A stretch of 64,000 nucleotides of DNA from Deltaproteobacteria bacterium (GTDB taxonomy: Bacteria; Bdellovibrionota; FAC87; UBA2466). The position numbers and the translations under genes were made by a program. Positions 18,987 through 52,548 of this stretch are shown here, in pieces. Position 1 is the first letter of the stretch; each line of letters starts with the position of its first letter. The notes under the pieces were generated by a model, which searched no databases, was not told the origin of the DNA, and saw only the letters and a list, made by a program, of their open reading frames with translations. The stretch covers positions 70-64,069 of the forward strand of contig JACPWY010000055.1 in assembly GCA_016196825.1 (NCBI GenBank), in the 5' to 3' direction.

Positions 18987-18996
18987 TGCAGTGAGA

Positions 18997-36900: not shown

Positions 36901-39474
36901 GGGATTGCGTTGGCGCCGTCGGGCACCTGCCTCGTTCAGATCGCGTTCACCCCTTTGAGTGGAACCACGAGCTCCTGGCAGCAAAACTTGATCGTGAGCG
37001 GTCAGGCCGGTTCCACGCCCGTGAGCGTTTCGGTCCCGATCAGCGGCAACACCACCTCGGTCGGAGCTCTGAGATTTTCTCCCGCCTCGGTCGCCTTCCC
37101 GGCGACCGCGCTCAATTCGTTCGCGACCATGAACGTCTCCCTTTCCAACACCGGGGGAACGGCGATCACCTTGGGTGCTCTTCCGACGCTCACCCCTCCC
37201 TATTCGGTGAATGCAGCCAACTGCTCCGGAATCACACTTCTGCCCGGCTCAAACTGCACGCTCATCATTACGTTCACGCCGGTGAGCGGAGCGACGAATT
37301 TCAATCAGACTCTCACGGTGGCAGGCACCTCCGGGGGTGTTCCGCTTTCCGCCTCGCTCCCGGTGAGTGGATCAACATTATCCTCCGGTGTTCTCACACC
37401 GTCGGCCAGTACGTACAACTTTGGTTCACTCCTGGCGGGACAGACCCGCACCTCCACGATCACTTGGACAAATACGGGAGGCGCCTCGCTCACAGCCACT
37501 TCGGCATCAGGTCTCTCCAGTCCCTTCACCCTCACCGCCAACAACTGCCTGAACGTGACACTGCAGGCGGGGATGAGCTGCTCGACCACGGTCACGTTCA
37601 CATCGCCCGGCGGGGCCGACATGGCGTGGAGCCAAGTTCTTAGACTCGCGTACGCGACGGCGGGAACCTCCGCCACATCGTCAGTTACTTACATTGCCGC
37701 GGCGTCCGCTACTCCCGGGACATTCACCCCAAGCCCGACAAGCTATAACTTTGGCACGATTAGCTCCGGCACATCGAGGAGCGTAAACATCACGTGGACT
37801 AACACCGGTGGCGCCACATCTCAGGCCCTCTCCTTCACGGGCTACTCGGCGCCCATCACGCTGACTTCAGACGGGTGCACGGGAAGGGCGCTCGCGGTCG
37901 GCGGCTCCTGCACCACGATGTTTACATTCAGCCCCACAACCGGGGGCCCGAGCTTCACCCGCACGGTGATCGCGCAATATACAACCAACGGGGCGGTTTT
38001 ATCGTCGAGCATTACCCTGGCAGGATCCATCGCTGCTCTTCCCGGCACGCTCACCGCAAGCCCGACAAGTTACAACTTTGGAAGTTTGCCCCCAGGAGGC
38101 ACCGGCTCCTCGACGGTGACCTGGACCAACACGGGCGGGTCGAGCCTCACTATCGCACCTGCGACAGGCATTTCGAGTCCGTTCACTCTGACTTCCAATT
38201 CATGCTCGGCTGCCACTCTTCTTCCAGGAGCGAGGTGCAGCACAACGGTCATATTCACGGCGCCTTTCGGGACGACCACCTCGTGGAACCAGATTCTAAG
38301 GCTCTCCTACTCGACGAACGGAGCTTCCGCGTCCACTTCGGTGGCATACTACGCCGCCACTACCGCCCCGCCGGGGACGCTCACGCCCAACACAGCCTCC
38401 TACAATTTCGGGTCGGTCAGCGTCGGCTCCGCCGTCCGCCAATGTTTCACCGAGACAAATACTGGTGGGGCCGCCATTACACTGCCGGCCGTTCCACGCA
38501 CGCTCTCCATCGCCGGCGGCTTCAATATTGTCGTCGACTCCTGCATCGGATCATCCCTGCAACCGAGCCAATCGTGTCAGGTGTGTCTCTCCTTTGCGCC
38601 GACAATCGCGGGCACCATGACCGCAACCTTCTCAGAAACTTTCACAAATACCGATGGCACCAACACGCGATCGGGCGGCACTATTAAGCTGATGGGAAAC
38701 GGCGTGGCACCCTCACCCTCCCCCACTCCCACCTATGGCTTCCTCCGCATCACTCCGACCCAATACAATTTTCCGGCCACCGCCGTGAATTATTCCAAGC
38801 TCCAAGTGTTCACTGTCACCAACACGGGCTCTGGCCCTGCCACCATCAACAATGTCCAGTACGGGGAGAATCCGGGGTGGCCGCAAAAGGCAATCGTCTA
38901 TAGCACCAACTGCTGTTCTGGTCTCAACACAACCACCGGGGCATGCACCCCCACAAACCTCAACCCTTACAGCTCTTGCACCGTCTCCCTCAATTTCTTG
39001 CCCAATATCTACATGATTCTGTCCAACTATGCCTTCACGGTCACCACGAACCTGATGGGGGTAGGTGGACTCTATAGTGGCCAATCCGTAATGGTCCAGG
39101 GCTCCATGGGGGTACTTTCGAATCCGCCGACCTCGGGAGCCCGGTGGTTCGCCACGTCCGGATCGACGACACTCCATGCTGCCGTGGGCGCTCAATCCGC
39201 CGCCACCACGGTCGTGCTTCAATCATTTTCGACGACGGCCAGAGCACCAACGATACCGGGTGTCGGCCCCGGATTCATGAGTCTCTCCGCCAACTACATC
39301 AATAGCCCGTTTCTGCTCACAAGCTCGTGCCCCATTGGGGGTAGCGTCGGGAGTTGTTACGCGACCGTCCGTTGCACACCTCGGGCCACCGGCTCGGTCA
39401 CTCTCCCGCTGACGGCGACCTTCAGTGACGGCACCCCCACGGCCACCCTCCCCTTCACCTGTGCCTCCCCTTAA
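27931..39474 (+). CDS. giant surface lipoprotein (3,847 aa) made of about 25 tandem HYDIN/VesB/CFA65-type (choice-of-anchor-D-like) Ig domains plus about 8 N-terminal Cys-containing repeats; putative adhesin
   Basis: Single uninterrupted 11.5-kb ORF. N-terminal lipoprotein signal (alt. GTG 27952: MRIGLVLVVLAALASC). Residues about 60-900 hold about 8 repeats with FxSDxxCS...FY motifs. Residues about 950-3600 hold about 25 repeats of about 100 aa with the pattern LxFGxVxVGxTSxxxxTVTN(T/S)Gxxx(A/L)TxIxxxGxSxPFxxxxxxCGxxLAxGAxCTxSVxFxPTxAGTFxxTLxxxY. That is, a (T/S)N(T/S)G motif plus a conserved Cys pair per module. The C-terminal 300 aa are unique and Cys-containing. Confidence 0.85.
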   Translation: MCVSGKNVRIGLVLVVLAALASCRFNMSDRSPSGVSSVTSPATPSSTTATTAGGDTSLTSVTAGPAVKLAVNGLPPFQAGVCAGPFTITAIDAHGNVATPSNNTELFKLEGTPPNAIFIDVNCTELAPEGSVVSDSSGTRALFYVNGTQAYSKVIAVNGAGVTGTFGIQILSGTPTRLEVTAPAAVSAGDCFAGALSLVDKNGNVATATKRFSAGVLIHGLSNAGVFSDPQCSQPLATLDFSVGTSSQPFHFLTQSPGTGSLAAQAPSGLEGGSANLTVFVENSPQLGLIPPPGQMVAGLCSAFRIVSLDTAGNTLVTHNGLPVTVSSKTSQLVLFSDAACSTPLNPATVTLAAESSTNQFFARSELAHTGQVAVSASGYLSATVAPIVAPAPAVSLSLDSLPDSLTMGGCMTAVVRSKDPFGNVSTVPVGVPILISGSGTAATGTNFYAGGSCTTSATKQFTLGNGSSLAAFSFSPGSPGALTITLTPSGLTGSGGATSTSGTTTIAPSPTVRLSLSSSTSAIIAGLCAKMSLSTIDAAGTVTMAPIDTSVTLSNDQSLQPLFFSDASCSSATSNLIVRSGTSSADFYIQSTKINAIVVSAQGTDSTGKAISTSKGVAIVAAAPSTLSIGSLGSAPSGKLCLGPVAVDTLDQFRNPAIVPKTTSFALESTGAVELQFSSNSTCSDSISSLTIPAGKGEGVFYAKAQSGGAVSFSILGGDLQGSGGTTLSDPPALHLVLAGPSSASATVGTCVAFQVGSVDPTNTPKIFDPNTITVGVTPTTNAVFFSDSSCATGLPNNQVTISPALNPAPFYFKFTTAQSMTISANGSLNSQGAGSQLTLTPANPSQIVLSPMGAGTFSASTCAGPYSAEAQDSFGNSSPVRSTLPFTFQPTGVSASFYSDAACSTSGAAIAAGKTSGLFYMKGAEPGSLTVSVGATSLHSSWRIFTVAADGAVKLTLLGQPVTQASFGSVSQGQTSSLIFTLTNSSTRTAASKIAVTVSSSSFSAALSTAPAGCSTLTDLKLAPGQQCGFGVLFTANSQGAASGSLDYTFSMGGASQSQSVSLSGTGTTPLAAVLTASAQSIDFGMLMAGQTTKQHVTVTNSGTRDASQISLSGVSAPFSASFESGCATLAPGSACDLTLAAAPSTSGSAQQTLVIDYSDGTDHTPNPSTVSLKETSNLPAVLQVSNSSLSFPATVVKGTSGAQTLTVTNMGSLPATEVSYSLSGSAFSLNSSSCPATLDAFTSCALSITFNPTALGSFSDVLSISYTSYAQAKATTVAIVSGDSTSPPHLIFNPALGTFAPTAINKAAPSVSLLLTNSGNGDAQGITLATSAPFSVNSTECSMLNAGQSCFVKVGFTPTAAGSFSSTLTANCSNATLGCAATTASLTGSTLPQSSLTLSATQLSFGLLTIGQTMTETITLSNSGALGNPAIQLSTPQLGGSNSAAALALTHSCGTTLASGSSCTVSVTFSPTNAGTFDNTLDIVWSSGNGLTTSTVGLSASALSAANVTLSPATSNFPDTVVGNTSQAIAVTVSNGGQSSAKDIVISGPTSVFIRSAATCPPEPFALAAGANCTVSYTFTPPGIGKTTHSFGGTFAGTSGATSIGNISFSGTGIATASLVVDETSLNFPPTSVGKSSQASLVFTNTGNGPASQINLANNLASPYFLSGPLCSSLAAGAQCTVTITFTPVAIGTFPSNVQVQYSDGSTLQKTSSISLTGTTGGKVNATPSTVSFSNVVVGQTNHQDVTITNNGAVSLSFLAAGIDPNSSPGFSVNPGACGTLSVGQSCEIVFSLSPNAVSNSLSGSSTVRFSDSVGNVVTAPPIALSGTSVGLAKLTVAPQSLTFSDTVIGTQSATQTLTITNTGVGQATKIAPALPADFLNSGGSCGASPFSLSPNAQCTISLIFKPTAAEDLSQAITGTYSNGVADDIFSFDVRGNGQTPGNLMLSVASLDFGSIALGTTSPLRSVTVSNTGGSAATQITILNLSPPFKNPSSSCGAQPFALAAGSSCELDYAFNPTSAGNSTEKLAVNYSNGVGSGTQRSLNLSGTGMGGSFSALPNPLNFNNTLLGQTGNLSVTVTNTGATNLNFAGAGINTGSGAGYSIANGNCGSLSTGATCSLTYSFTPTAISSSFSGSSTIQFTDNMDNAVSQVLPLSASSSGVGLLSSSKASLSFGDVTVGSSSAAQTFTVTNIGSGPATQISWSGPSPDFVVNYGSCGSNASLAAGAQCTVSLSLKPAAPGTFNQTLTVGYSDGQTTTTANMVTVSGRGLGPANLALSPSSLDFSGIAVGATSPTKLVTITNSGSATASNILLNPTLSGNSFTKVSSTCGNEPFVLAAGTNCQINLAFSPAVAGSASQIYSVSYSDSVSQQSGSTLTLNGTGIEAAVLTTNLSNVVFPYTALGQSSSATVVLTNAGGTDATQIALSPSTLPAHFSYGNSTCDSTLSPGATCSLTLNFIPKVSGTFTASLQITYNNGTPTTPTPPSISLTGTTAGAYSLTTASLDFGAVPVGSSKNLSLTVTNIGAPTITSSTPTMDTGSDAAFRLINSTCSTLASGQNCLITYSFQPTTAMTNAGGASTLAFTNPDNSPLPSTQVRMTASAPGVARITASPSTLAFGPIAVNGSSSPQTLTLTNAGTGPATQLAWSGVTNDFSIAFSTCPNGSALSVGAQCTISVTFRPTSAATFSQSLALSYFDGTANSNLIASTLTGQGVGAGVMALSPLSLDFGSVLVGQTKALNFAITNTGTGPITNVQFSSPVALPFATGSLCSSIQPGASCQLSTAFLPSAAGTFQATGQLSYYDGASAQLSPAFTLSGHTGPAFRFSPTSLSFGNVAYGTTSTAQAITITNTGGTSIKLNTILFDGQNSPQNGFRLVTSNCGTTLSPNGICTLSATFTPAAANSGYSSVWTISFVDAVTSSNPISGSIILSGSGTSPGALSANPASFSYGTVSLGSTANTTIVISNPGGTSTLITGVTALASPFRAVNQCTGIALAPSGTCLVQIAFTPLSGTTSSWQQNLIVSGQAGSTPVSVSVPISGNTTSVGALRFSPASVAFPATALNSFATMNVSLSNTGGTAITLGALPTLTPPYSVNAANCSGITLLPGSNCTLIITFTPVSGATNFNQTLTVAGTSGGVPLSASLPVSGSTLSSGVLTPSASTYNFGSLLAGQTRTSTITWTNTGGASLTATSASGLSSPFTLTANNCLNVTLQAGMSCSTTVTFTSPGGADMAWSQVLRLAYATAGTSATSSVTYIAAASATPGTFTPSPTSYNFGTISSGTSRSVNITWTNTGGATSQALSFTGYSAPITLTSDGCTGRALAVGGSCTTMFTFSPTTGGPSFTRTVIAQYTTNGAVLSSSITLAGSIAALPGTLTASPTSYNFGSLPPGGTGSSTVTWTNTGGSSLTIAPATGISSPFTLTSNSCSAATLLPGARCSTTVIFTAPFGTTTSWNQILRLSYSTNGASASTSVAYYAATTAPPGTLTPNTASYNFGSVSVGSAVRQCFTETNTGGAAITLPAVPRTLSIAGGFNIVVDSCIGSSLQPSQSCQVCLSFAPTIAGTMTATFSETFTNTDGTNTRSGGTIKLMGNGVAPSPSPTPTYGFLRITPTQYNFPATAVNYSKLQVFTVTNTGSGPATINNVQYGENPGWPQKAIVYSTNCCSGLNTTTGACTPTNLNPYSSCTVSLNFLPNIYMILSNYAFTVTTNLMGVGGLYSGQSVMVQGSMGVLSNPPTSGARWFATSGSTTLHAAVGAQSAATTVVLQSFSTTARAPTIPGVGPGFMSLSANYINSPFLLTSSCPIGGSVGSCYATVRCTPRATGSVTLPLTATFSDGTPTATLPFTCASP

Positions 39475-40280: not shown

Positions 40281-40574
40281 TCACTTTCGAAAGGGCGGAA
40301 TCACGAGTGGCTTGGGCTCGAGGGCTGCGGGTTGGTTGGCGCGAACGGACGGCGCCGCGGGTGGAAACTCCAGTATCACGCGAAATGTTTGACCGTTTCG
40401 TCGACAGGTCATCTCGACGGCGTCCCCGGGCCCTACCCCGATGAGCGCGCGCTCCAGATCGAGGCGGTCGCGCACCGCAATGCCTCGCACTTCCTTTTGA
40501 GGAAGTCCGACTGGTCGACGAGTGGCAATTTTTGGAATAAGCTGGATCTCTTTGCGACGCAGCGTAGCAAGCAC
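40281..40574 (-). CDS. small hypothetical protein (possible PDZ-like fold)
   Basis: 97-aa ORF divergent from mmsA. There is weak PDZ-like GVGPGDAV...NG pattern only. Confidence 0.25.
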   Translation of the reverse strand: MLATLRRKEIQLIPKIATRRPVGLPQKEVRGIAVRDRLDLERALIGVGPGDAVEMTCRRNGQTFRVILEFPPAAPSVRANQPAALEPKPLVIPPFRK

Positions 40575-40590
40575 AGTTTTAGGGGGAGTT

Positions 40591-42039
40591 ATGGTCCGAA
40601 ATTACATTGATGGTCGTTGGGTTGATTCGACGGGGCGGGAATCTGTCGACATCATCAACCCCGCCACCGAAGAGGTGCTCGACAAATGTCCACTCGGTAC
40701 AGCCGAGGATGTAAACCGCGCGGTAGCGGCCGCCCAAGCGGCCTTTCCCGCCTGGCGCCAGACGCCGGTCATCGATCGCGTCCAGTATCTTTTCAAACTC
40801 AAAAGCCTGCTCGAGGCCACCTTCGACGAAATCGTCGCCCTCAATACCGCTGAACACGGCAAGACACTGGTCGAATCGCGCGGCGACGTCCGCCGCGGTA
40901 TCCAGATGGTGGAAACTGCCTGCGGCATGCCGAGCCTCATGATGGGCCAATGCTCCGAAGACGTAGCAGCGGGTATCGACTCGATGAGCGTGCGCCAGCC
41001 GATGGGAGTCTTCGCCGCCATCACGCCGTTTAATTTTCCAGCGATGGTTCCCTTTTGGTTTTGGCCATTCGCCATCGCGAGCGGCAACACATTCGTCCTC
41101 AAACCTTCCGAGCGCGTGCCACTCACCCAAGTTAAAATCTTTGGCCTCCTAGAAAAGACCGGCCTACCCAAAGGCGTGATGAATCTGGTCGCGGGCAGCA
41201 AGGATGTGGTCAATGCACTCTGCACTCACCCCGATGTGAAGGGCGTCTCGTTCGTCGGCTCAACTCCGGTCGCGAAACACGTCTACCAAACCGGCACGTC
41301 GCACGGAAAAAGGGTCCAGGCCCTGGGCGGCGCGAAAAATTTCATGGTGATCCTCCCCGACGCCGCGATGGACACCTCCATCAGCACCTGCCTCGAATCG
41401 ATCATCGGCTGCGCCGGGCAGAGGTGCCTCGCAGGCTCCGTGATCATCTCGGTCGGCGATTGCGCCAAGACGGTGAGCGATCGCATCGTACGGCTCGCCA
41501 GCGATGTGCGCATAGGCAACGGCGCCGACCCGCAAACCCACATGGGGCCCGTGATCTCGCGCTCTTCGCTAGAACGGATCCACGGCCTCATCCAATCTGC
41601 GGCCCTTGACGGCGCGCAGATTCTCCTCGATGGCCGGCAGACCGCAGGCCGCGGCTATTTCTTAAAACCCACGGTCATCGCGGGCGTGACTCCCAAGATG
41701 CGCATCGCCCAGGAGGAGATCTTTGGCCCGGTCGTCTGCCTGGCGAACACCGACTCGCTCGCAAGCGCCATCCAGTGGATCAACTCGTCGCCGTTTGCCA
41801 ACACGGCTTCCCTTTTCACCAACTCAGGCGCAGCGGCCCGACAGTTCAGCTACGAGGCGGCCCCGGCCATGTTAGGCCTCAACATTGGGGTCCCGGCCCC
41901 GATGGCCTATTACTCCTTTGGCGGCGCGAAAGATTCCTTTTTTGGTGACGTGAAGGCGCACGGAGCACAGGGCGTGCTCTTCTTCACCGATCAGAAGGTC
42001 ACCATCTCGCGCTGGAAGAAGAACTCAAACATCTGGTGA
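40591..42039 (+). CDS. mmsA: CoA-acylating methylmalonate/malonate-semialdehyde dehydrogenase
   Basis: AAITPFNFPAMVPFWFWPFAIASGNTFVLKPSE and catalytic Cys context GCAGQRCLAGS are MmsA hallmarks. ATG 40591 is preceded by AGGGGGAG. Confidence 0.85.
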   Translation: MVRNYIDGRWVDSTGRESVDIINPATEEVLDKCPLGTAEDVNRAVAAAQAAFPAWRQTPVIDRVQYLFKLKSLLEATFDEIVALNTAEHGKTLVESRGDVRRGIQMVETACGMPSLMMGQCSEDVAAGIDSMSVRQPMGVFAAITPFNFPAMVPFWFWPFAIASGNTFVLKPSERVPLTQVKIFGLLEKTGLPKGVMNLVAGSKDVVNALCTHPDVKGVSFVGSTPVAKHVYQTGTSHGKRVQALGGAKNFMVILPDAAMDTSISTCLESIIGCAGQRCLAGSVIISVGDCAKTVSDRIVRLASDVRIGNGADPQTHMGPVISRSSLERIHGLIQSAALDGAQILLDGRQTAGRGYFLKPTVIAGVTPKMRIAQEEIFGPVVCLANTDSLASAIQWINSSPFANTASLFTNSGAAARQFSYEAAPAMLGLNIGVPAPMAYYSFGGAKDSFFGDVKAHGAQGVLFFTDQKVTISRWKKNSNIW

Positions 42040-42043
42040 GACC

Positions 42044-43426
42044 ATGAAAAAGACCCTCATCAAAAATGGCACGGTCGTGACAGCGACCGACACAGCCGCG
42101 GCCGACATTCTCATCGAAGGGGAAAAGATCGCGGCCATCGGACGCGACCTCTTCCATTCACCCGACACGACGGTCGACGCCACCGGTTGCTACGTCATCC
42201 CGGGCGGCATCGACGCCCACACTCACCTCGATCTCCCCTTCATGGGCACCTCCTCGAGCGACGATTTTGAGACAGGCACCCGCGCGGCCCTCTTTGGCGG
42301 CACGACCTCCATCATCGATTTCGCCTTCCAAACTCAAGGGCGCTCACTCAAAGAGGGGCTCGCCACCTGGCGCGAAAAGGCCGCAGGCCGTGCCATCGCC
42401 GATTATGGATTCCACATCGCCGTCACCGATTTCAATCCGACTGTCCATCAAGAGGTCCGCGACCTAATCGAAAAGGATGGCGTCACCTCCTTTAAGACCT
42501 TCATGGCCTATAAAGGCGCTCTCATGATTGACGATAAGCAGATGATCGGCCTCATGAATGAGGTCAAGAAGTGGGGTGGGCTCGTCACGGTCCACGCCGA
42601 AAATGGTGATCTCGCCGATTCGCTCATTCAGCAAAACTGTGAGGCCAAGAACCTCGCCCCGAAGTTCCACGCCCTTTCACGGCCCGAAATCGTTGAGTCC
42701 GAGGCCACGGGGCGCGCAATTGACATCGCCTACGCCGGAGGCCACCCGCTCTATGTCGTGCACATGACGTGCGAGGGGGCGCTCAACCGAGTGCGCGAGG
42801 CCACCAAGCGCAACCAGACGGTTCTCGTCGAGACCTGCGTGCAGTACCTCCTTCTCGATGATTCCGTCTACGAACGGCCCGGTTTCGAGGGGTCTAAATG
42901 GGTGATGAGCCCTCCGATTCGCAAACCAAAAGATCAGACAGCACTCTGGAACGGGATCGATCAAGGACTCGTCCACACAGTAGCCACCGATCACTGCCCC
43001 TTTTGCCTCGATCAAAAGGCAATGGGGAAGGATGACTTCTCCAAGATCCCCAACGGCGCCCCCGGCATCGAGCACCGGATGGAGCTCATGCACTCCGAGG
43101 GCGTCGTTAAGAACCGGATCACGCTCAACCGTTTCGTCGATCTCAATTGCACAGCGCCTGCGAAGATTTTTGGCCTCTACCCGAAAAAGGGGAGTCTCTC
43201 CGTCGGAAGCGACGCCGACATCGTCATTTTTGATCCCAAGGTGCAGCACACGATTTCCCAAAGCACCCACCACATGCGGTGCGATTACTCGGCCTACGAA
43301 GGCTGGAAGGTCCAGGGCAAGGTCCGCACCGTGTATTTGCGCGGCACCTGCGCCATCGACAAGGGGCAGGTCCTGATTGGCAAGGGCTTTGGACAATACC
43401 TGCCCCGCAAGAAGTTTAAGGAGTAG
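42044..43426 (+). CDS. dihydropyrimidinase / D-hydantoinase
   Basis: Cyclic amidohydrolase N-terminus: KNGTVVTA...VIPGGIDAHTHLDLPFMGTSSSDDFETGTRAALFGGTTSIIDFA. Length 460 aa. Confidence 0.85.
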   Translation: MKKTLIKNGTVVTATDTAAADILIEGEKIAAIGRDLFHSPDTTVDATGCYVIPGGIDAHTHLDLPFMGTSSSDDFETGTRAALFGGTTSIIDFAFQTQGRSLKEGLATWREKAAGRAIADYGFHIAVTDFNPTVHQEVRDLIEKDGVTSFKTFMAYKGALMIDDKQMIGLMNEVKKWGGLVTVHAENGDLADSLIQQNCEAKNLAPKFHALSRPEIVESEATGRAIDIAYAGGHPLYVVHMTCEGALNRVREATKRNQTVLVETCVQYLLLDDSVYERPGFEGSKWVMSPPIRKPKDQTALWNGIDQGLVHTVATDHCPFCLDQKAMGKDDFSKIPNGAPGIEHRMELMHSEGVVKNRITLNRFVDLNCTAPAKIFGLYPKKGSLSVGSDADIVIFDPKVQHTISQSTHHMRCDYSAYEGWKVQGKVRTVYLRGTCAIDKGQVLIGKGFGQYLPRKKFKE

Positions 43427-43428
43427 AA

Positions 43429-44295
43429 ATGGCAAGACCCGTGAAAATTGGCCTCATCCAGATGGCAAGCAAATTGCCGACAAGCGCTTCGTGCGAAGAG
43501 CACAGAAAGGCTATGACCGAGGCGCATGTCACCTACATCGAAGAGGCGGCCAGAAAGGGCGTGAATATTCTCTGCATGCAGGAGATCTTCACCGGCCCCT
43601 ATTTCTGCCCCTCGCAGGAGACGAAATGGTACGGCCTCACCGAGAAGATCCCCGAAGGCCCCACGACCCAGCTCATGATGGAGCTCGCCAAGAAGCACAA
43701 GATGGTGATCGTGGTCCCGATCTATGAGGAGCACATGACCGGCGTTTACTACAACACGGCCGCCGTCATCGATGCTGATGGAAAGTATCTTGGTAAATAC
43801 AGAAAGAATCATATCCCGCAGGTGAAGGGCTTCTGGGAGAAGTTTTTCTTTAAGCCAGGCAACCTCGGCTACCCGGTTTTCAACACCGCCTTTGGCAAAG
43901 TCGGCGTCTACATCTGCTACGATCGGCATTTTCCTGATGGCGCGCGCTGCCTCGGGCTCAATGGCGCTGAAATCGTTTTCAATCCCTCCGCCACGGTGGC
44001 GGGCTTGTCGGAATACCTTTGGGAGATCGAGCAGCCGGCACATGCCGTTGCCAACGGTTACTTCATCGCCGCTATCAACCGCATCGGCCGCGAAGAGCCG
44101 TGGAACATCGGCGATTTCTACGGCCAAAGCTACGTGGCCAGTCCGCGGGGAAAAATTCTTAAGAAAGCCTCGCGCGACAAGGACGAGCTCCTCATCGCCG
44201 ACATCGATCTCGATGAGGTGAAGGAAATTCGAGACCTCTGGCAGTTTTATCGGGACAGGCGACCCGAGACCTATGGCGCCATCACGGAAATTTAA
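43429..44295 (+). CDS. carbon-nitrogen hydrolase family protein, beta-ureidopropionase-like (N-carbamoyl-beta-alanine amidohydrolase)
   Basis: Nitrilase-superfamily E-K-C triad context: KIGLIQM..., ...YRKNHIP..., VGVYICYDRHFPDGAR. Its position between dihydropyrimidinase and aminotransferase supports the call. Confidence 0.75.
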   Translation: MARPVKIGLIQMASKLPTSASCEEHRKAMTEAHVTYIEEAARKGVNILCMQEIFTGPYFCPSQETKWYGLTEKIPEGPTTQLMMELAKKHKMVIVVPIYEEHMTGVYYNTAAVIDADGKYLGKYRKNHIPQVKGFWEKFFFKPGNLGYPVFNTAFGKVGVYICYDRHFPDGARCLGLNGAEIVFNPSATVAGLSEYLWEIEQPAHAVANGYFIAAINRIGREEPWNIGDFYGQSYVASPRGKILKKASRDKDELLIADIDLDEVKEIRDLWQFYRDRRPETYGAITEI

Positions 44296-44305
44296 GGGGA
44301 AAGAC

Positions 44306-45613
44306 ATGATGACCACGGACCAGATAGGTGAAATCAGAAAGAAGCATTTTCTGCACACGACGGTGCACTACTACAAAAAGCCCCTGCAGCTCGTAAAAGC
44401 GAAGAACCAGTATGTCTTCGACGAAACGGGGCGACAGTATTTGGATTGCGTCGGCGGCATCGTCTGCATCTCGGCGGGCCACAACCACCCTCGCATCAAG
44501 GCCCAGCTCAAGAAGATGCTCGACGAGGATGAGATCCAGCACACCTCAACGCTTTATTTTAATCCGCACGCGGCCGAGCTGGCGGCTCGTCTCATCGAAG
44601 AGGCCCCACCGGGAGTGGATCGCGCCTTTTTCACCAACTCCGGCAGCGAGGCCAATGAGCTCGCGTTTCTCGCCGCCCGTCAGGCCACAGGCGAGACGAT
44701 GATCGTGAACCTGCGCCACAGCTACCACGGCTGCACATCCGGCGCTCTTTCTTCTTGCGGCCACAACACGTGGCGATTCCGGAGCCAACCCGTGACGGCC
44801 GTCACCTCCGCGATGGAGCCGTATTGCTATCGGTGTCCATTTGGAAAAGCTCCAAGCTCATGTGAGTTGGAATGCGCGAAAAACGTCGAGACAACGATTC
44901 AGACCACGACCCACGGGAAAATAGCGGCGTTTATCGCCGAGCCCGTGATGGGCGTGGGCGGATTCATCACGCCTCCAGCTGACTACTTTCCCGAGGTCAC
45001 CAAGATCGTCCACAAGTATGGCGGCAAATACATTAGTGACGAAGTCCAGACAGGCGCCGGCCGGGCCGGGCAGACCGTGCTGCTCACCAAGGATCTTGAG
45101 ATCGATGCCGACATGGTGACGATGGCCAAGGGGCTTGGCAACGGCGCCCCCATCGGAGCCACCCTCATGAAGAGTGACATCGCTGAAGCGATGTCGGGCA
45201 AGATGATGTTCAATACCTTCGGCAGCGACCCCTACCAAGCCGCACAGGCCAAGCTCGTGCTCGACATCATCCACGATGAACACCTCATCGAGAACGCCCA
45301 GACCGTCGGAAAATACCTGATGGACAGCCTCAAGGGGCTCATGAAGACGCACCCGCTCATCGGCGATGTCCGAGGCCGCGGCCTCCTTCTGGGTGCCGAG
45401 CTGGTAAAAGATCGCACGACTAAGGAATACGCCACCGCCGAGACGTCCGAGCTGATGGAGCGTTGCCGGGACAAGGGGGTGCTCATCGGAAAGGGTGGCC
45501 TGTTCGGCAACGTCATCCGCTTTGCGCCCCCACTCACCTTCACCCGAGCCAACGCCGACGAGCTCCTGAAGGCTATAGACGAGGGACTCTTCGAAATCGA
45601 GAGGAAGCAATGA
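44306..45613 (+). CDS. class III aminotransferase (beta-alanine/omega-amino acid--pyruvate or 2-oxoglutarate aminotransferase)
   Basis: PLP fold-type I class III pattern: ...FTNSGSEANELA..., DEVQTGAGRAGQ, and the lysine region TMAKGLGNGAPIGA. ATG 44306 is preceded by AAGGGGA. The stop overlaps the next start (ATGA). Confidence 0.8.
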   Translation: MMTTDQIGEIRKKHFLHTTVHYYKKPLQLVKAKNQYVFDETGRQYLDCVGGIVCISAGHNHPRIKAQLKKMLDEDEIQHTSTLYFNPHAAELAARLIEEAPPGVDRAFFTNSGSEANELAFLAARQATGETMIVNLRHSYHGCTSGALSSCGHNTWRFRSQPVTAVTSAMEPYCYRCPFGKAPSSCELECAKNVETTIQTTTHGKIAAFIAEPVMGVGGFITPPADYFPEVTKIVHKYGGKYISDEVQTGAGRAGQTVLLTKDLEIDADMVTMAKGLGNGAPIGATLMKSDIAEAMSGKMMFNTFGSDPYQAAQAKLVLDIIHDEHLIENAQTVGKYLMDSLKGLMKTHPLIGDVRGRGLLLGAELVKDRTTKEYATAETSELMERCRDKGVLIGKGGLFGNVIRFAPPLTFTRANADELLKAIDEGLFEIERKQ

Positions 45614-46887
45614 GTCTCAAGACGGAATTCCTCGGCTTTGAACTCGAGAATCCGTGGTGCCTCGCCTCAGCTCCGCCGACTGCCACAGGAAAGCTCATGA
45701 GCGATGCTTTTGAAGTGGGCTGGGGAGCGGCCATTATGAAGACCGTGGGCCCGGTGGAAGAGCCCATCATTAACGTCGCTCCCCGCATCCACACCTATAA
45801 AAAGTGGAACCGTGAAATTGCGATGCAAAACATCGAGCTCATCACCGATCGCAAGCTCTCGGTCTGGCTCGAAGAGCTCAAAGTCCTTAAGAAGCGATAC
45901 CCCAAGAAGATGGTCATCGGCTCGATCATGGCCCCCGGCCATGAAATGGACGCCTGGGCCCGCCTCATCGAGGAGATGAACCGGGTCGGCTGCGACGCCA
46001 TCGAGCTCAACCTCGGCTGTCCCCACGGCATGCCCGAAAGAGACATGGGTGCTATCTGCTCCCAGGACCCTGAGATCGTCTACAACATCGTCTCCACCTG
46101 CAAGGGTGCAAGCAAGGTTCCCATCCTCACCAAGCTCACGCCGAACGTGACTAATATTAAAGTCATGGCCGCCGCCGCCAAACGCGGTGGCACCGATGCG
46201 ATCACGGTCATCAATACGGTGAACGGCATCATCGGCGTGGACGTCTACTCGCGAAAACCCCACCTTTCGGTGAACGGCTATACCGCTGTCGGCGGCATCT
46301 CAGGTAACGCCGTAAAGCCCATTGGCTTGAAATGCGTCGCCGAGTGCAAGCAGGCGACAGAGCTTCCGATCTCCGCCACCGGCGGCATCACCACATGGTC
46401 CGACGGAGTCGAATACCTCATCATGGGTGCAAGCCAACTCCAGCTCTGCACGGAGGTGATGATCCGCGGCTTTAAGATCATCTCTGGGCTCAATCAAGGC
46501 ATTGAAAAGTACATGACCGAGATGGGTTACACGTCGATAGATGAGGTCAAAGGGACGCTCTATAAAAATATCACGTCATTTGATTACCTTCTCAAACAAA
46601 GCCACTCCGAAAAGGTTCGCGTTAACGAAGAGACCTGCACCGGCTGCAACATCTGCGTCGTCGCCTGCCGCGACGCCGGCTACGACGCCCTCAAGCTGAA
46701 AGGCGTCCCCGCCCACGATCGCACCAAAGGAACTCGCAATGTGGCCGACGTCATCGTAGATCACTGCACGGGCTGCAACCTCTGCGTCGCCGTCTGCCCA
46801 GTGCCAGAATGCATGAGCCTCTACGACTCCCATGAACAATTCCCTTACGACCTCCACACCAGCTACGCACAGAATACGTTAACGTAA
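45610..46887 (+). CDS. preA: dihydropyrimidine dehydrogenase PreA-like subunit (DHOD-like TIM barrel + two 4Fe-4S ferredoxin motifs)
   Basis: N-terminal dihydroorotate-dehydrogenase-like barrel (LASAPPT..., IELNLGCPHGM, GGITT). C-terminal CTGCNICVVACRDAG and CTGCNLCVAVCPVPEC. ATG 45610 overlaps the upstream stop. Confidence 0.75.
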   Translation: MSLKTEFLGFELENPWCLASAPPTATGKLMSDAFEVGWGAAIMKTVGPVEEPIINVAPRIHTYKKWNREIAMQNIELITDRKLSVWLEELKVLKKRYPKKMVIGSIMAPGHEMDAWARLIEEMNRVGCDAIELNLGCPHGMPERDMGAICSQDPEIVYNIVSTCKGASKVPILTKLTPNVTNIKVMAAAAKRGGTDAITVINTVNGIIGVDVYSRKPHLSVNGYTAVGGISGNAVKPIGLKCVAECKQATELPISATGGITTWSDGVEYLIMGASQLQLCTEVMIRGFKIISGLNQGIEKYMTEMGYTSIDEVKGTLYKNITSFDYLLKQSHSEKVRVNEETCTGCNICVVACRDAGYDALKLKGVPAHDRTKGTRNVADVIVDHCTGCNLCVAVCPVPECMSLYDSHEQFPYDLHTSYAQNTLT

Positions 46888-46937
46888 GGGGCCAGTCGCC
46901 TTCCAATATTGAAAGGTGCCGGGTCCTAGAAATGACC

Positions 46938-47297
46938 TTAATAGGGAACGCGAATATCCGGCCATTTCCGGGAGAAGTCCTTCGTATTCCGAGTGACCAA
47001 CACATACCCGAGGCGCTCCGCAGTGGCTTTGATGATTGCGTCGGGAATTCTCATCTTAAACTTCCTACGAACTCGGACAGTTTCCTTCGCCATTTCACCA
47101 TCAATCGCGTGAGTCTTGAAACGGCTTAGAAACCCGGCAAGCTCGATCTCCTCACGACCACTTCGAGCCCCGACCAAAATTTCGATTTGTGTGATGATAC
47201 TAATGTGCAGTTCATCGTAGCGCTCAAACTCCTCCTTCGAACGCCGGTCGCCGTTCAGGTAGTCAATCAAGATATTGGTGTCAAAAACGGCGTTCAC
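46938..47297 (-). CDS. vapC: PIN-domain toxin VapC
   Basis: MNAVFDTNILIDYL... carries the PIN N-terminal Asp. The later acidic residues and TRNTKDF are also present. Length 119 aa. Confidence 0.75.
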   Translation of the reverse strand: MNAVFDTNILIDYLNGDRRSKEEFERYDELHISIITQIEILVGARSGREEIELAGFLSRFKTHAIDGEMAKETVRVRRKFKMRIPDAIIKATAERLGYVLVTRNTKDFSRKWPDIRVPY

Positions 47298-47521
47298 TTT
47301 TTTTCCCAGTCCTTCCTCAGTTTCTTTTCATAAGCCAGGGAGTCCACACCCCGTCCCTTCCACAAACCGAACGAGGCGTCCTTCGGCAAGCAATGGGGGG
47401 ACTCCGCGAGAAACAGGGTGATAGCCCTTCGAATGGCCTCAGCCCGCGAAATGGACTCTTTCGCGCAAATCTCAGCGAGCTGCTTGATTATCTTCTCCGG
47501 AATGTCGATGAGAGTCTTCAT
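47294..47521 (-). CDS. vapB: ribbon-helix-helix (CopG-like) antitoxin VapB
   Basis: 75 aa. ...ISRAEAIRRAITLFL... is RHH-like. There is a 4-nt overlap with vapC. Confidence 0.6.
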   Translation of the reverse strand: MKTLIDIPEKIIKQLAEICAKESISRAEAIRRAITLFLAESPHCLPKDASFGLWKGRGVDSLAYEKKLRKDWEKK

Positions 47522-47615
47522 TCATATAGTATATCTATATATAATATGCTTTTCAAGCTGGATGGAGTTTTCAGCAGTAGGCGTAATTGCCGAAATTGTC
47601 CTATAGAATAATCAC

Positions 47616-49055
<1,440 letters not shown>

Positions 49056-49061
<6 letters not shown>

Positions 49062-49865
49062 ACGCTGCCGGCGAGTGTGGGTCAAACACCCGACCTGCAC
49101 GATCATGCTCGCACTAAAGAAAAACACATTGCACATGGCCGCTCCAAACGCATGGATGGCGCTAGTCAGTCCGAGTGCCGCTAGGAAAAACACCCGCCTG
49201 TGGCGTGGCCAAAACCACCAGGCGACTAGCACAGCGCCAAGCGCCGCCTCCCCAATCACCCCCATCCACGCCAAGATCGCGTTGTGCGAAAGCGCCGCTA
49301 TCCACTGACGGTACAGGTCCGGAAACCACCAGTCCCGCGCGGTGGCCAGATAATTCTGTCGCACGTACAGATCCCCCCCACTCAAAAACTCAGTGTTCAC
49401 CTTCATCAGCGCCGTCGACAGATAAATCCAAGCCGTCTCGATCACAAACACGTCACGTGGCCAGATCCTGACCGCCTTCCCACGGTCCGCATTGGAGCAC
49501 TCACTCTGCGCCAGCAGAAAAACACTCACACAGTAGTAAAGAAAATCATTCAGCGGAAAAATATACGCCTCAAGCCCCCGCGCCAGCAGCGCCCCCACCG
49601 CAAACCACCGCGCCCGCCACCCAATCAGCAAACCCACTTCGCAAAATATCACCCCCAATTGCGATAACTGGATCGCCCGGTGAAAAGTCTGGTCCGGCAC
49701 CAGCCACAAAACACCCTGCGTCCCGCCGTAAAAGAGATCCATCAGATCATAAGTCAGCCACACGAGCGCAAAACCAATTCGCAAAGCAATGTAGGGATTG
49801 TGGTCCGTGGTCTCCCCCACCCAGCGACGCCACCGTTCAACCACAGGGCACCTCCTCCTCGGCAT
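49056..49865 (-). CDS. hypothetical integral membrane protein (HTTM-like?)
   Basis: 269 aa with several hydrophobic helices. There is no confident family assignment. Confidence 0.4.
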
Positions 49866-50238
49866 GGGTGCCGTCTGGCGAGAAGCAATGGAATTTCACC
49901 CGGTGCCGCGCCTCCGGCGAACTCCTCAATCGACACACCAGCTGCCCCACCGCGTGGTAGTCGCGGGCGGTGTCATAGATGATGTCCCACTCAAGAGACG
50001 TGCCGAATCGCCGAAGCGAAGAAAACTCCCCAAGCTCGGTCGCAACCGGCGGATCCCAGCTCAACTGGCAGCGCTCCACCCGAGTGGCGAACATGTCCCA
50101 CGAAAAGGCCACCCGTCCAGGCGGCGCGCCGAAGAGCCGAAAGCCCCTCTCAAACTGCAGGCGGGTGGAGTTCAACTGGAGCACCACAAGCCCCCCCACG
50201 AGCACCGCCACATACACTGGAGACGCCAAGAATTTCAT
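49837..50238 (-). CDS. hypothetical secreted protein
   Basis: Internal ATG gives MKFLASPVYVAVLVGGLVVLQ. The track start at 50259 would extend into the palindromic element. Confidence 0.4.
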   Translation of the reverse strand: MKFLASPVYVAVLVGGLVVLQLNSTRLQFERGFRLFGAPPGRVAFSWDMFATRVERCQLSWDPPVATELGEFSSLRRFGTSLEWDIIYDTARDYHAVGQLVCRLRSSPEARHRVKFHCFSPDGTHAEEEVPCG

Positions 50239-50241
50239 TGA

Positions 50242-50380
50242 TTTAAGAGCGCATTGCAAAATTAACCCCTACTCGGTCGGATAAAATGGCCAGGCCCTTC
50301 GTCCTCCGCGTTCGCGTCCTCGGTCCTGGCCATTTTATCCCTCCCTCGCTCACGGGGTTAATTTTGCAATGCGCTCTAAA
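50242..50380. repeat. nested imperfect palindrome. The outer 24-bp arms agagcgcattgcaaaattaacccc / ggggttaattttgcaatgcgctct sit 2 bp inside the stated ends. The inner 16-bp arms are ggataaaatggccagg / cctggccattttatcc. The core is a GC-rich direct-repeat (gtcctccgcg..gtcctcggtcc).
   Basis: Direct reading of 50242-50380. The two arm pairs are exact reverse complements. It lies in the divergent intergenic region between 49837-50238(-) and 50436-50879(+). Confidence 0.75.
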
Positions 50381-50435
50381 TTATATACCGAGTCAGCCTT
50401 GAAAGTCCGTTCACCCGTTTGCTATAGCCTCATGC

Positions 50436-50879
50436 ATGAAAACCACCCTCATCGTCACAGGCCTTCTCTTCCTTTCGCCCACACTCTTCGCCACCGAGGA
50501 TAAAATCCTCGGTCCCATCGAGGCTATCGAAAGAACGGTGGTCGTCGATCCCAAGAAGTGTCTTGAAAACCTCAAGATGACCGTAGAGGTCGGGGGCGGC
50601 GGCGGGTGGGGCTACGCAATCCAGGTGGGTCAGTGCGAGATCACTTTCGAAGACGCCGACCGCATTCTTCAATCCGACAAGATCGAAAAGCCATTTCCAA
50701 GCGCTGGCCCTATCGGAACCCAAGTTTCTCTCGGTGTCGATGGCAAGAGCTATCACATCAGTGTGAGATTCCGGAACGAAGGCTTCAAGGATAAGACCGA
50801 CACGGCCAGAGGTCTCATTCTCAACTCCGTCCCCCGACAGACTTTTCTCGTGAATGCGATTCGCGTTATCGCGCAATGA
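50436..50879 (+). CDS. secreted hypothetical protein
   Basis: Signal peptide MKTTLIVTGLLFLSPTLFA. Length 147 aa with a poly-Gly loop. No known motif. Confidence 0.5.
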   Translation: MKTTLIVTGLLFLSPTLFATEDKILGPIEAIERTVVVDPKKCLENLKMTVEVGGGGGWGYAIQVGQCEITFEDADRILQSDKIEKPFPSAGPIGTQVSLGVDGKSYHISVRFRNEGFKDKTDTARGLILNSVPRQTFLVNAIRVIAQ

Positions 50880-50892
50880 CGCCGATGGTGGG

Positions 50893-51222
50893 CTACAGCA
50901 GGCGAATTTGTTTATTGATGCGCTCTACGTCAGACTCAACACGCTCTTGGCGGGAGATAACAGCTGCGAGGCCGTCGAGAACGATACGATTCTCGTTGCG
51001 CTGCTCCTCCATAAGAGAGGCCACACGATGAATTTCACCGGTGAGGCCCTCAATTTTGGATTCTATCCCCGCAAATCGAGCGTCCATCCTTTTGCCGAGA
51101 GATCGAATGTCCGCTTTGAGCTCACTTCGGATCTCTTTGACCAGCCCAACCGATGCTGGGGCGGAAGAACGAGTGATGTGTCTCTTTTCCATCAGGCATT
51201 GATAGCCACGAACGTGAGCCAA
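50893..51222 (-). CDS. hypothetical coiled-coil protein
   Basis: 109-aa ORF. Weak. Confidence 0.25.
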   Translation of the reverse strand: MAHVRGYQCLMEKRHITRSSAPASVGLVKEIRSELKADIRSLGKRMDARFAGIESKIEGLTGEIHRVASLMEEQRNENRIVLDGLAAVISRQERVESDVERINKQIRLL

Positions 51223-51402
51223 ATCAAAGGGAAATGCGTCATGAAATATGGGTCCCGATTGTGGACTCGCAAGTGGGAATTCCGGACCGCAAGTAAACTT
51301 ATCAATTCCGCAAGCGGTAGGAACCGGTCAGCCGCGACAGCCAGCCGGCACGCGCGCTTTCAAGAAATGAATGATTAAAGAGCAACTCAGGCTCTCCCAA
51401 AA

Positions 51403-52548
51403 TCAGCGAAAATCCTGCACCTGGACTCGAGACAAGAAAATCGGATCCGCGATGAAACGGTTGTAGCGCTCCAAGGATTGCATCGATGTATCCAGGGCAA
51501 AGTTATTGTCAGGGCCGCCATTCTCCGAATGGAAGTGGTAGTAGTTGATCGCCTTTATCTGTGGGTACCTTCCACCGATAAACGCCCGCAACGCCCCTTC
51601 GATCCAGTCGGCCTTGCCATCCGGCACATGAGGCTTTTCGATTACGCCCCACTCCGACAGGATCACCGGCCGCGTAGCTGAAACAGCCGTGAGCTCGGCC
51701 CACCTGGCATCGAGCGTCTCGGTGAAGGGCCCCCACCAATCCCCCTGCAATTGAGCGCCATACACCGTGATGCCGAGCCAATCGATGTAGTCATCGCCCG
51801 GGTAATAAAACTTCAGATTATTCCATGGCATTTCCGGAATCGGCTGGGAATCGCCATGAAACACCCAAGTGATGTTGTGGGCGTGCTCCTGGCGAAACAA
51901 CGCAACGATCCTTTGAAACGTGAGCTTGAATCGTGTGGGCCCGGTCGGAACCGTCTGTCCCGCCCAGATCATCGGCGTCTCGCCGCCATTGGAATCGCCG
52001 CTCCATTGAAACCATTTCCCATTACACTCGGGGCCAAATTCCACCATCAGAGCCGCGTTCGTCGCCTTCGCGTCCCGCGCCCACTGCCGAATCTCCCCGT
52101 CGAAATCGCCCTTCACAAACCGCTCGAGTGAAAACACGGGATCCGTGCCAGTGAACACCTTCCTCGTGCTCCTCGGCAGCATACGAATGAGCGGCGTCTT
52201 CCCCTTTATGAGAATCTCCCGGATGGGGGCATCCGGAAATCTGAACCCATCCACGAAATCATTATCAAAGGAAACGAAAGCAAGCGGCCTCTTCAGCATC
52301 CCCTCGATCTGATCGATCTTTTCTCCCACCCCCTCGAAGACCCCATCGGCGATGTCCGGATAGACTCCGTGATAGATGCCATTCGGCGAGGGGACGACCT
52401 TCACGCCCGAACTCACAACCGAAAGCATCGGCTGCGCCACCAACCCCGGAGGTTGCGCAGCGCAACACGAAAGGCTCAAAACACCACAAACCCACACCAA
52501 TCGGAGCCAAAATGACCTCATGACCGCCACTCCCCACGGAATTTGCAA
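51403..52548 (-). CDS. glycoside hydrolase family 26-like (beta-mannanase type), secreted/lipoprotein
   Basis: GH26-like blocks: MVEFGPECNGKWFQWSG, YYPGDDYIDWLGITVYG, ILSEWGV (catalytic Glu pair context). The N-terminal signal has LSLSCC. Confidence 0.6.
   Translation of the reverse strand: MQIPWGVAVMRSFWLRLVWVCGVLSLSCCAAQPPGLVAQPMLSVVSSGVKVVPSPNGIYHGVYPDIADGVFEGVGEKIDQIEGMLKRPLAFVSFDNDFVDGFRFPDAPIREILIKGKTPLIRMLPRSTRKVFTGTDPVFSLERFVKGDFDGEIRQWARDAKATNAALMVEFGPECNGKWFQWSGDSNGGETPMIWAGQTVPTGPTRFKLTFQRIVALFRQEHAHNITWVFHGDSQPIPEMPWNNLKFYYPGDDYIDWLGITVYGAQLQGDWWGPFTETLDARWAELTAVSATRPVILSEWGVIEKPHVPDGKADWIEGALRAFIGGRYPQIKAINYYHFHSENGGPDNNFALDTSMQSLERYNRFIADPIFLSRVQVQDFR

Follow-up and report, generated by a model that had tools for sequence, protein, structure and literature searches.

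How did a two-level, near-perfect palindrome come to lie between two divergent genes of an ordinary bacterial chromosome? The question is raised by positions 50242 to 50380 of a 64,000-nucleotide stretch of DNA, hereafter called the window (contig JACPWY010000055.1 of assembly GCA_016196825.1, positions 70 to 64,069), from an uncultured 'Deltaproteobacteria bacterium'. A first-pass annotation, made from the sequence alone, had offered three kinds of answer: a MITE- or REP-like element, a cruciform-forming regulatory site, or the attachment or resolution site of a small mobile element. Our analysis favors a narrower form of the first. We consider it probable, though well short of certain, that the palindrome is a 130-bp non-autonomous transposon (miniature inverted-repeat transposable element, or MITE) of the IS5-family type, inserted at the trinucleotide TAA. 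By description, it is most probably a type II MITE of that family, type II being the class in which sequence conservation with an insertion sequence (IS) is confined to the terminal inverted repeats (TIRs) (PMC10969869). Four features lead to this reading: TIRs that resemble those of IS5-family elements, a TAA on either side, 130 bp of non-coding sequence, and a promoter geometry that is regained when the element is excised in silico.

Anatomy and termini of the element

The repeat finder and inspection of the sequence agree on an outer inverted repeat of 27 nt with one mismatch (50243 to 50269 and 50354 to 50380), 24 nt of which are perfect (50246 to 50269 and 50354 to 50377), and on a nested inner repeat of 19 nt with one mismatch (50279 to 50297 and 50322 to 50340; 95% complementary), 16 nt of which are perfect (50279 to 50294 and 50325 to 50340). 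The 24-bp and 16-bp perfect arms described in the first-pass annotation are therefore confirmed, as is their divergent intergenic location (ATGs at 50238 on the minus strand and at 50436 on the plus strand). Beyond these two sites the window has no occurrence of the outer 24-mer, which was also absent from all 100 shuffled sequences, and in an exhaustive scan of the window the outer and inner arms ranked first and second among all inverted repeats, the next longest having 15 nt. The outer arms are 84 nt apart. The spacers that separate them from the inner arms measure 9 nt (left) and 13 nt (right), and this difference keeps the palindrome from being fully symmetric. A direct repeat does exist in the core, as previously claimed, in the form of two copies of the 7-nt sequence CGTCCTC (50300 to 50306 and 50315 to 50321, 15 nt apart), but it is weaker than the description "GC-rich direct-repeat core" implied, lying within a 24-nt pyrimidine-rich loop. 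The CTCGGTC of the left spacer recurs in direct orientation at 50319 to 50325.

As we delimit it, the element occupies 50247 to 50376, a length of 130 bp, and ends in perfect 23-nt TIRs (GAGCGCATTGCAAAATTAACCCC; 24 nt if A50246 and T50377 are counted). Both TIRs are directly flanked by TAA, a 3-bp direct repeat that falls within the 2- to 4-bp range of the IS427, IS1031, and IS5 groups of the IS5 family. A T-N-A target partly complements itself, which also accounts for the apparent extension of the inverted repeat to 27 nt with one central mismatch. A putative target-site duplication (TSD) is thus present, but at 50244 to 50246 and 50377 to 50379 and not at 50242 and 50380, the limits given in the first-pass annotation. 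GAG ends, like those of the element, are typical of the IS1031 and IS427 groups, and ISWpi1, another member of the IS5 family, also has 23-bp TIRs. When anchored at the terminus, with no sliding, the TIR tip GAGCGCATTGCAAAA is identical at 10 of 12 positions to the end of ISPg1 and ISPg9 (GAGACCATTGCA), at 9 of 12 to that of ISPg4 (GAGACTGTTGCA), and at 12 of 15 to that of ISNme1 (GAGACCTTTGCAAAA) (Table 2 of PMC4596501), and the terminal signature GAG....TTGCA(AAA) of IS5-family members is present in the element's ends. That table was examined after the GAG end and the 3-bp duplication had already pointed to IS5, which makes it a reasonably independent check. Within the IS5 family, members of the IS1031 group are described as commonly inserting at a site of three nucleotides (PMC2516522), and other groups of the family duplicate 2, 4, or 9 bp, the lengths listed for the IS427 and IS5 groups being 2 and 4 bp (PMC3281130). 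Duplications of 3 bp are likewise described for the related eukaryotic PIF/Harbinger elements (PMC2213677).

The length of 130 bp lies within the 50 to 1,000 bp of prokaryotic MITEs, and the largest open reading frames (ORFs) inside the element encode 23 to 38 amino acids, leaving no room for a transposase gene. A search with a six-frame pseudo-protein, meant to reveal further copies through any spurious ORFs annotated in them, returned no match at an E value of 0.1 or below among 5.8 billion protein clusters for any frame, including that of a 23-codon ORF on the minus strand. Speculatively, this ORF could be an upstream ORF, a relic, or a product of chance.

Promoter geometry around the element

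In this genome, a Shine-Dalgarno sequence is missing from many first genes, which instead show a -10-like hexamer 6 to 9 nt before the start codon (four examples are given in Table 1); operon-internal genes carry GGAGG-type sites. Such spacing is that of mRNAs with no leader or almost none, and it suggests that leaderless mRNAs are common in the organism. The perfect TATAAT that abuts the element is one of only seven such hexamers in the window, counting both strands (128 kb), and it faces the gene for a 133-amino-acid protein whose ATG lies 5 to 8 nt from the other side of the element (the Logan gene call has the same start). Since the element begins 5 nt upstream of the ATG, the 133-aa gene at present has no close -10 box 6 to 9 nt before its start codon. 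In silico removal of 50247 to 50379, with one TAA left in place, gives GGTATATAAT-TTAAATCA-ATG on the minus strand, that is, TATAAT-N8-ATG at 50238, and leaves a compact divergent promoter region of 64 bp, the modeled empty-site junction reading ...CATTGATTTAA joined directly to ATTATATACC.... It is therefore probable that the element split a leaderless-type promoter from its gene, and insertion at TAA, downstream of the -10 box and ahead of the start codon, is the simplest account of the arrangement. The candidate promoter of the divergent 147-aa gene is located outside the element and, judging by its position, should be unaffected by the insertion; the consensus scan left it uncalled because the final T is missing from its second hexamer.

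In silico, either strand folds much more stably than its shuffled versions. The minimum free energy is -78.3 kcal/mol for the plus strand (z = -11.9 relative to shuffled sequences) and -82.1 kcal/mol for the minus strand (z = -10.5), in each case as one long interrupted hairpin, and DNA folding gives -45.8 kcal/mol (z = -12.4). For the 175-nt 5' region of the 133-aa gene mRNA, the predicted value is -83.7 kcal/mol (z = -7.0), with an outer stem of 21 bp and an inner stem of 16 bp that end about 13 nt before the ATG. The stop codon of the 23-codon internal ORF lies 21 nt before the same ATG. Covariance models of Rfam 15, run over 49000 to 51500, gave two matches only, both below the gathering score and outside the element. 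A consensus scan for promoters and terminators found one weak promoter-like and one weak terminator-like site, neither count exceeding the shuffled expectation.

These features can be put together in a simple scheme. A DDE transposase of the IS5 family, supplied by a gene at another place in the genome, would have bound both TIRs and inserted the element at a TAA within the compact divergent promoter region of about 64 bp. The point of insertion would have been between the -10 box (TATAAT, 50385 to 50380, minus strand) and the start codon of the 133-aa gene, the first gene of a two-gene operon whose products are a membrane protein of 133 aa and a second, HTTM-like one. Before the insertion, this gene would have had the leaderless-type arrangement TATAAT-N8-ATG. 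Afterwards, a transcript starting about 7 nt past the -10 box would begin at about 50372 to 50374, inside the right TIR, and the mRNA of the 133-aa gene would carry nearly the whole element as a hairpin leader of about 135 nt. Because the gene has no Shine-Dalgarno sequence and would acquire a hairpin leader, its expression should drop or change. Lower or altered expression could come about through blocked translation initiation or through RNase III cleavage, as with Correia elements, and transcripts containing MITEs are known substrates of RNase III (PMC10969869). The internal promoter-like site and the 23-codon ORF, both recognized by their motifs, might modify the effect of the leader. A function of the element for its host need not be assumed in this scheme.

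Table 1. Coordinates of the element, its parts, and adjacent or comparable features in the window
Feature	Position	Strand	Basis or remark
Left putative TSD, TAA	50244..50246	.	Read from sequence
Left TIR GAGCGCATTGCAAAATTAACCCC, 23 nt	50247..50269	+	Perfectly complementary to 50354-50376
Left spacer TACTCGGTC, 9 nt, unpaired	50270..50278	.	Sequence and predicted fold
Inner left arm GGATAAAATGGCCAGGCCC	50279..50297	+	Repeat finder: 19 nt 95% complementary, 16 nt perfect
Central pyrimidine-rich loop, two CGTCCTC	50298..50321	.	Loop of predicted hairpin
Inner right arm GGTCCTGGCCATTTTATCC	50322..50340	-	Repeat finder; also in Logan contigs L001 and L002
Right spacer CTCCCTCGCTCAC, 13 nt; minus-strand reading GTGAGCGAGGGAG, Shine-Dalgarno-like	50341..50353	.	
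Right TIR, 23 nt	50354..50376	-	Identical in Logan contigs L001 and L002
Right putative TSD, TAA	50377..50379	.	Read from sequence
23-codon ORF MARTEDANAEDEGPGHFIRPSRG within element	50262..50333	-	GGAGG 6 nt before its ATG
Perfect -10 hexamer TATAAT abutting element, facing 133-aa gene	50380..50385	-	Sequence
133-aa gene, hydrophobic N terminus, no Pfam match, first of two-gene unit	49837..50238	-	ATG 50238
262-aa membrane protein gene, distantly HTTM/VKG_Carbox-like	49056..49844	-	Overlaps end of 133-aa gene
147-aa orphan gene, signal-peptide-like N terminus, divergent neighbor	50436..50879	+	ATG 50436
Candidate promoter of 147-aa gene: TTGAAA, 18-nt spacer, TATAGC, 7 nt to ATG	50399..50428	+	Sequence; inferred
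TATAGC-N7-ATG, 147-aa gene	Start 50436, box region 50423-50435	+	Sequence
TATAAT-N9-ATG, FHA-GGDEF gene	Start 18986, box 18996-19001	-	Sequence
TACAAT-N8-ATG, relA/spoT	Start 10934, box region 10935-10950	-	Sequence
TAGAAT-N6-ATG, NCS1 permease gene	Start 47616, box region 47600-47615	+	Sequence

Copy number, assembly breaks, and rival explanations

Parts of the element were recovered in independent Logan assemblies. Contigs L001 and L002, from two sequencing runs, contain 50308 to 50382 exactly, joined to their own unique flank, and contig L003, reported from two samples, contains the left outer arm exactly up to 50273, also on its own unique flank. The intervening 50274 to 50307, which includes the left inner arm, is present only in the window's own assembly and is covered by no retrieved Logan contig. 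In at least two samples, therefore, the Logan assemblies are interrupted within the element, the left contig stopping at 50273 and the right contigs beginning at 50308, and the window holds no intrinsic repeated 30-mer able to cause such breaks. If counting starts at the T of the left TAA, the left contig reaches exactly 30 nt into the element at 50273. In a de Bruijn graph with k = 31, which we take to be the Logan setting, a contig that enters a repeat stops 30 nt in, and the left end thus fits the existence of extra copies with other flanks. The breaks are a hint of such copies, compatible with them and no proof, and allelic variation within 50274 to 50307 or a hairpin-related loss of coverage is an equally possible cause. 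It is also a remote possibility that the breaks at 50273 and 50308 reflect real population heterogeneity inside the element, with a variable or switching core. Three specific rearrangements were rejected as causes, since they predict breaks elsewhere: inversion of the interior through recombination of the outer arms (50270), inversion between the inner arms (50295), and deletion between the CTCGGTC repeats (50279).

Several results weigh against a MITE. No second copy was found within the 64-kb window by 24-mer and 16-mer searches, blastn-short, or nhmmer; the exact TIR 20-mer had no match in 185,579 GTDB representative genomes; and its one match in JGI metagenomes, in contig L004, was rejected as chance because it sits in a histidine-kinase ORF with no partner arm. 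Searches of IMG/VR for the arm, the paired-arm pattern, and the paired inner-arm pattern gave no match, nor did blastn of plasmids with 221-nt and 35-nt queries, and blastn-short and nhmmer found only the element itself in 1.3 Mb of fetched loci. In all loci together, GAG-N4-TTGCA...TGCAA-N4-CTC pairs comprised the element and one chance pair in L085, with a motif count as expected. There is no transposase among the Pfam-scanned genes of the window or in the annotation of the flanking Logan contig. The TAA/TAA repeat is just 3 bp long in an AT-rich flank and would also be compatible with a simple extension of the palindrome, and the inner inverted repeat of 16 to 19 nt is a non-standard part for an IS-derived MITE. 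Identical extra copies would not produce the right break at 50308, for which the copies would have to differ from 50338 onward, and the Logan assemblies of these samples are generally fragmentary, the left contig being only 2.3 kb long. Finally, a real empty site was not observed: identity to the operon does not exceed 51% even in its best homologues, and the 147-aa neighbor is an orphan. The first-pass annotation had made copy number the test of its MITE proposal and counted a single copy with no structured RNA against it; no further copy came to light in the collections searched, and by that standard a MITE is not proven. Since the window's own copy was unmatched in the genome and metagenome scans, the source genome is not in those collections. 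Copy numbers of prokaryotic MITEs can be as low as one per genome, that of MITEAba12 being 1 to 22 (PMC10969869).

Among the other explanations, the one that survives best, although we regard it as unlikely, is a host regulatory palindrome, that is, a cruciform, an operator, or a structured leader RNA serving the divergent pair, whose arms selection would have kept for pairing or for binding a symmetric protein. The element lies exactly in the divergent promoter region, 5 to 8 nt from one start codon, its predicted hairpin is extremely stable on both strands, a single copy is known, and its minus strand contains both a weak sigma-70-like site (TTAACC-18-TAAAAT) and the 23-codon ORF with its GGAGG Shine-Dalgarno-like motif. 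However, the promoter-like site matches at 9 of 12 positions, and chance alone would give about 0.8 sites of that quality over the region scanned. Operators need no 24-nt perfect arms 84 nt apart, no Rfam family corresponds to the structure, and regulation leaves unexplained both the IS5-like termini with their TAA duplication and the recovery of normal promoter geometry on excision. Homologous operons also bear on this point. The 262-aa HTTM-like protein, which itself has no Pfam match at an E value of 0.01 or below, has homologues at 38 to 51% identity, two of them with PF05090, and we fetched three homologue contigs (P0003, P0010, and P0011; 42 to 51% identity), some from Bdellovibrionia metagenome-assembled genomes (MAGs) and metagenomes. 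No comparable palindrome was present upstream of the operon in these three loci, where the upstream regions span 50 to 250 nt, and the element is thus not a conserved part of the operon's control region. These relatives are too distant to act as a true empty site. With this lack of conservation, the cruciform-forming regulatory site suggested by the first-pass annotation is left, like an operator, with no positive evidence.

A variant that combines the two ideas, to which we give only a small chance, is that a MITE has been domesticated and now acts as the regulatory leader of the 133-aa/HTTM-like operon. Transcription would start in the right TIR, the 21- plus 16-bp hairpin would form in the leader, and its processing would set expression of a gene that once had no leader, with translation of the internal ORF (GGAGG-N6-ATG, 50333 to 50262) or RNase III cleavage unfolding or processing the structure.

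We attach little weight to a REPIN- or REP-like hairpin, or to another palindromic family such as ERIC, moved by a non-DDE mechanism, for example, by a RAYT (Y1) transposase. In its general form, a nested palindrome some 140 bp long between genes does recall REP doublets and ERIC. Against this, no RAYT/Y1 transposase is found among the window genes scanned, there is no other copy in the 64 kb, and REPs are short GC-rich palindromes without TSDs, whereas the element has AT-rich IS5-like tips and TAA/TAA. Of the composite label MITE/REP-like, then, the MITE anatomy (IS5-like TIRs, TAA/TAA, 130 bp of non-coding sequence, and the excision geometry) held up, and the defining parts of a REP were not found in the window.

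A site of site-specific recombination, whether the attC of an integron, the att site of a prophage or island, or a site of resolution, is highly improbable. Integron attC sites have R''/R' boxes with the consensus RYYYAAC/GTTRRRY, to which AATTAAC and GTTAATT in the outer arms conform at 6 of 7 positions each, the two-level inverted repeats with unequal spacers are reminiscent of such sites, and the small neighboring genes are orphans. Nevertheless, attC sites are made of short boxes (R''/L''...L'/R') with extrahelical bases, unlike 24-nt perfect stems, and they close the 3' end of a cassette in an array beside intI. There is one site only, between divergent genes, with no second site and no cassette array. 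No transposase, integrase, recombinase, or RAYT gene was found among the Pfam-scanned window genes or among the genes already annotated on the downstream Logan contig, and the surroundings consist of chromosomal housekeeping and catabolic genes, with the window's only tRNA gene 26 kb away. The attachment or resolution site put forward in the first-pass annotation accordingly finds no support.

Least probable of all is an assembly artifact, a fold-back chimera produced in MAG contig building: the Logan breaks and the uncovered 50274 to 50307 could be taken to favor it, but the left outer arm and the right inner and outer arms were each rebuilt independently on their own flanks, identical to the window, so that the palindrome is not the product of a single assembly. 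Retron and terminator readings were rejected because their defining parts are missing.

Related elements, neighboring genes, and significance

In terminal sequence, the element comes closest to a set of IS5-family-derived MITEs, namely, BrickBuilt and MITEPgRS (Porphyromonas gingivalis) and the ISNme1-linked ATR element (Neisseria meningitidis), which are non-coding, strictly intergenic, located near gene starts, and bounded by TIRs that begin GAG....TTGCA(AAA) (PMC4596501). Another likeness is that BrickBuilt, too, has internal direct repeats, along with outward promoters. The element differs from its known relatives in its longer perfect TIRs, its nested second inverted repeat, its clean TAA duplication, and its single copy so far. 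BrickBuilt, MITEPgRS, and ATR have about 19 copies per genome, with parent ISs in the same genome, and TIRs of 12 to 15 nt that are often degenerate, whereas the element has one known copy, no parent, and perfect TIRs of 23 nt. BrickBuilt, moreover, is several hundred base pairs long, with a 23-nt minisatellite and irregular flanking duplications (CT, GAAA, and AAAAA), compared with 130 bp, a second nested inverted repeat, and TAA here.

By size, position, and RNA hairpin, the closest elements are Correia and ERIC. Correia elements (CREE) of Neisseria are about 100 to 155 bp long, have TIRs of about 26 bp, and lie next to gene starts; their transcripts form a long hairpin in which RNase III cuts the paired TIRs, and promoter-to-gene geometry can change (PMC10969869). 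They differ in having a TA duplication, TIRs of unrelated sequence, hundreds of copies, and experimentally shown effects on expression. ERIC (IRU) elements of Enterobacteriaceae are intergenic imperfect palindromes of about 127 bp that are transcribed with neighboring mRNAs and affect mRNA stability (PMC10969869). Unlike the element, they occur in 30 to 700 copies with a conserved consensus, and they show no sequence similarity to it, no IS5-like tips, and no TAA duplication. Small size, TIRs, and a preference for AT-rich sites near genes are shared with the Tourist/mPing MITEs of the PIF/Harbinger group, whose transposases are eukaryotic relatives of IS5; these MITEs differ in their eukaryotic hosts, TIR sequences, and very high copy numbers. 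A 3-bp TTA/TAA target duplication is a further likeness (for PIF/Harbinger, PMC2213677).

The proteins flanking the element correspond to HYZ71_13580 and HYZ71_13590 of the NCBI MAG, and the 147-aa protein had itself, HYZ71_13590, as its sole match among the 5.8 billion clusters. The rest of the window is ordinary chromosome, with genes for RelA/SpoT, MutL, MiaA, PGI, and acyl-CoA dehydrogenases, a pyrimidine-degradation/NCS1 island, and a kynurenine-pathway operon. The small partner gene upstream of the HTTM-like gene is kept in all three fetched homologue contigs, its product, of about 135 to 151 aa, preceding the HTTM-like gene in L085, L087, and L088. Together with window positions 49056 to 50238 (minus strand), these loci define a two-gene module that is conserved in uncultured Bdellovibrionia-like bacteria and consists of a membrane-anchored protein of 133 to 151 aa and an overlapping 257- to 284-aa protein with distant kinship to HTTM/VKG_Carbox. 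In two JGI metagenome contigs (L085, 3530 to 3625, and L086, 2120 to 2215), four tandem 21- to 22-nt repeats, GGCGCACCTTTGCGAAGTGAC, lie directly upstream of the 135-aa/HTTM-like pair, and the region upstream of this homologous operon seems either to be prone to repeat insertions or to bear a repeated binding site. On the 214-kb contig L087, a weak Y1_Tnp (IS200/IS605-type) gene (2270 to 2923, minus strand), unrelated to the IS5-type ends in the window, is located upstream of the operon at a distance of 0.5 kb.

As a synteny anchor we took the NCS1 permease, which is 70 to 80% identical across Bdellovibrionota, Bacteroidota, and Ignavibacteria, and the genes that flank the element were found in none of 80 loci anchored on it. 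This test of the orthologous locus is uninformative because the island is widely shared and its neighbors differ. The pyrimidine-degradation and NCS1 island (40522 to 49061) shows 70 to 83% protein identity to MAG loci of the same three groups, and the orphan genes that adjoin it are absent from those loci; these sequence comparisons suggest that the island has spread horizontally. Elsewhere in the window, a second strong inverted repeat (ATATCGACGATAGATC/GATCTATCGTCGATAA; arms of 15 to 17 nt, 37-nt loop) lies in AT-rich non-coding DNA at 462 to 528, followed by a 14-nt perfect palindrome, ATTGCCCGGGCAAT, at 562 to 575. A solitary 75-aa ribbon-helix-helix (CopG-like) gene is found at 47294 to 47550, with an AT-rich TATA-repeat region immediately upstream and no toxin partner evident among the ORFs listed nearby, and a giant ORF of 3,847 aa extends from 27931 to 39474 on the plus strand.

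The element would be of an ordinary kind and opens no new kind of biology. Palindromes of this sort break short-read assemblies and can pass for regulatory sites, and, if our reading is correct, the locus is a caution on both counts. It would also be useful for annotation in an uncultured lineage related to Bdellovibrionota whose mobile elements have been little described. Overall, if the reading is correct, it would provide a clean single-locus case of a MITE that separates a leaderless-type gene's -10 box from its start codon. Of the by-products, the most useful are the evidence for leaderless-type promoters in this organism and the case of -10/start-codon insertion itself.

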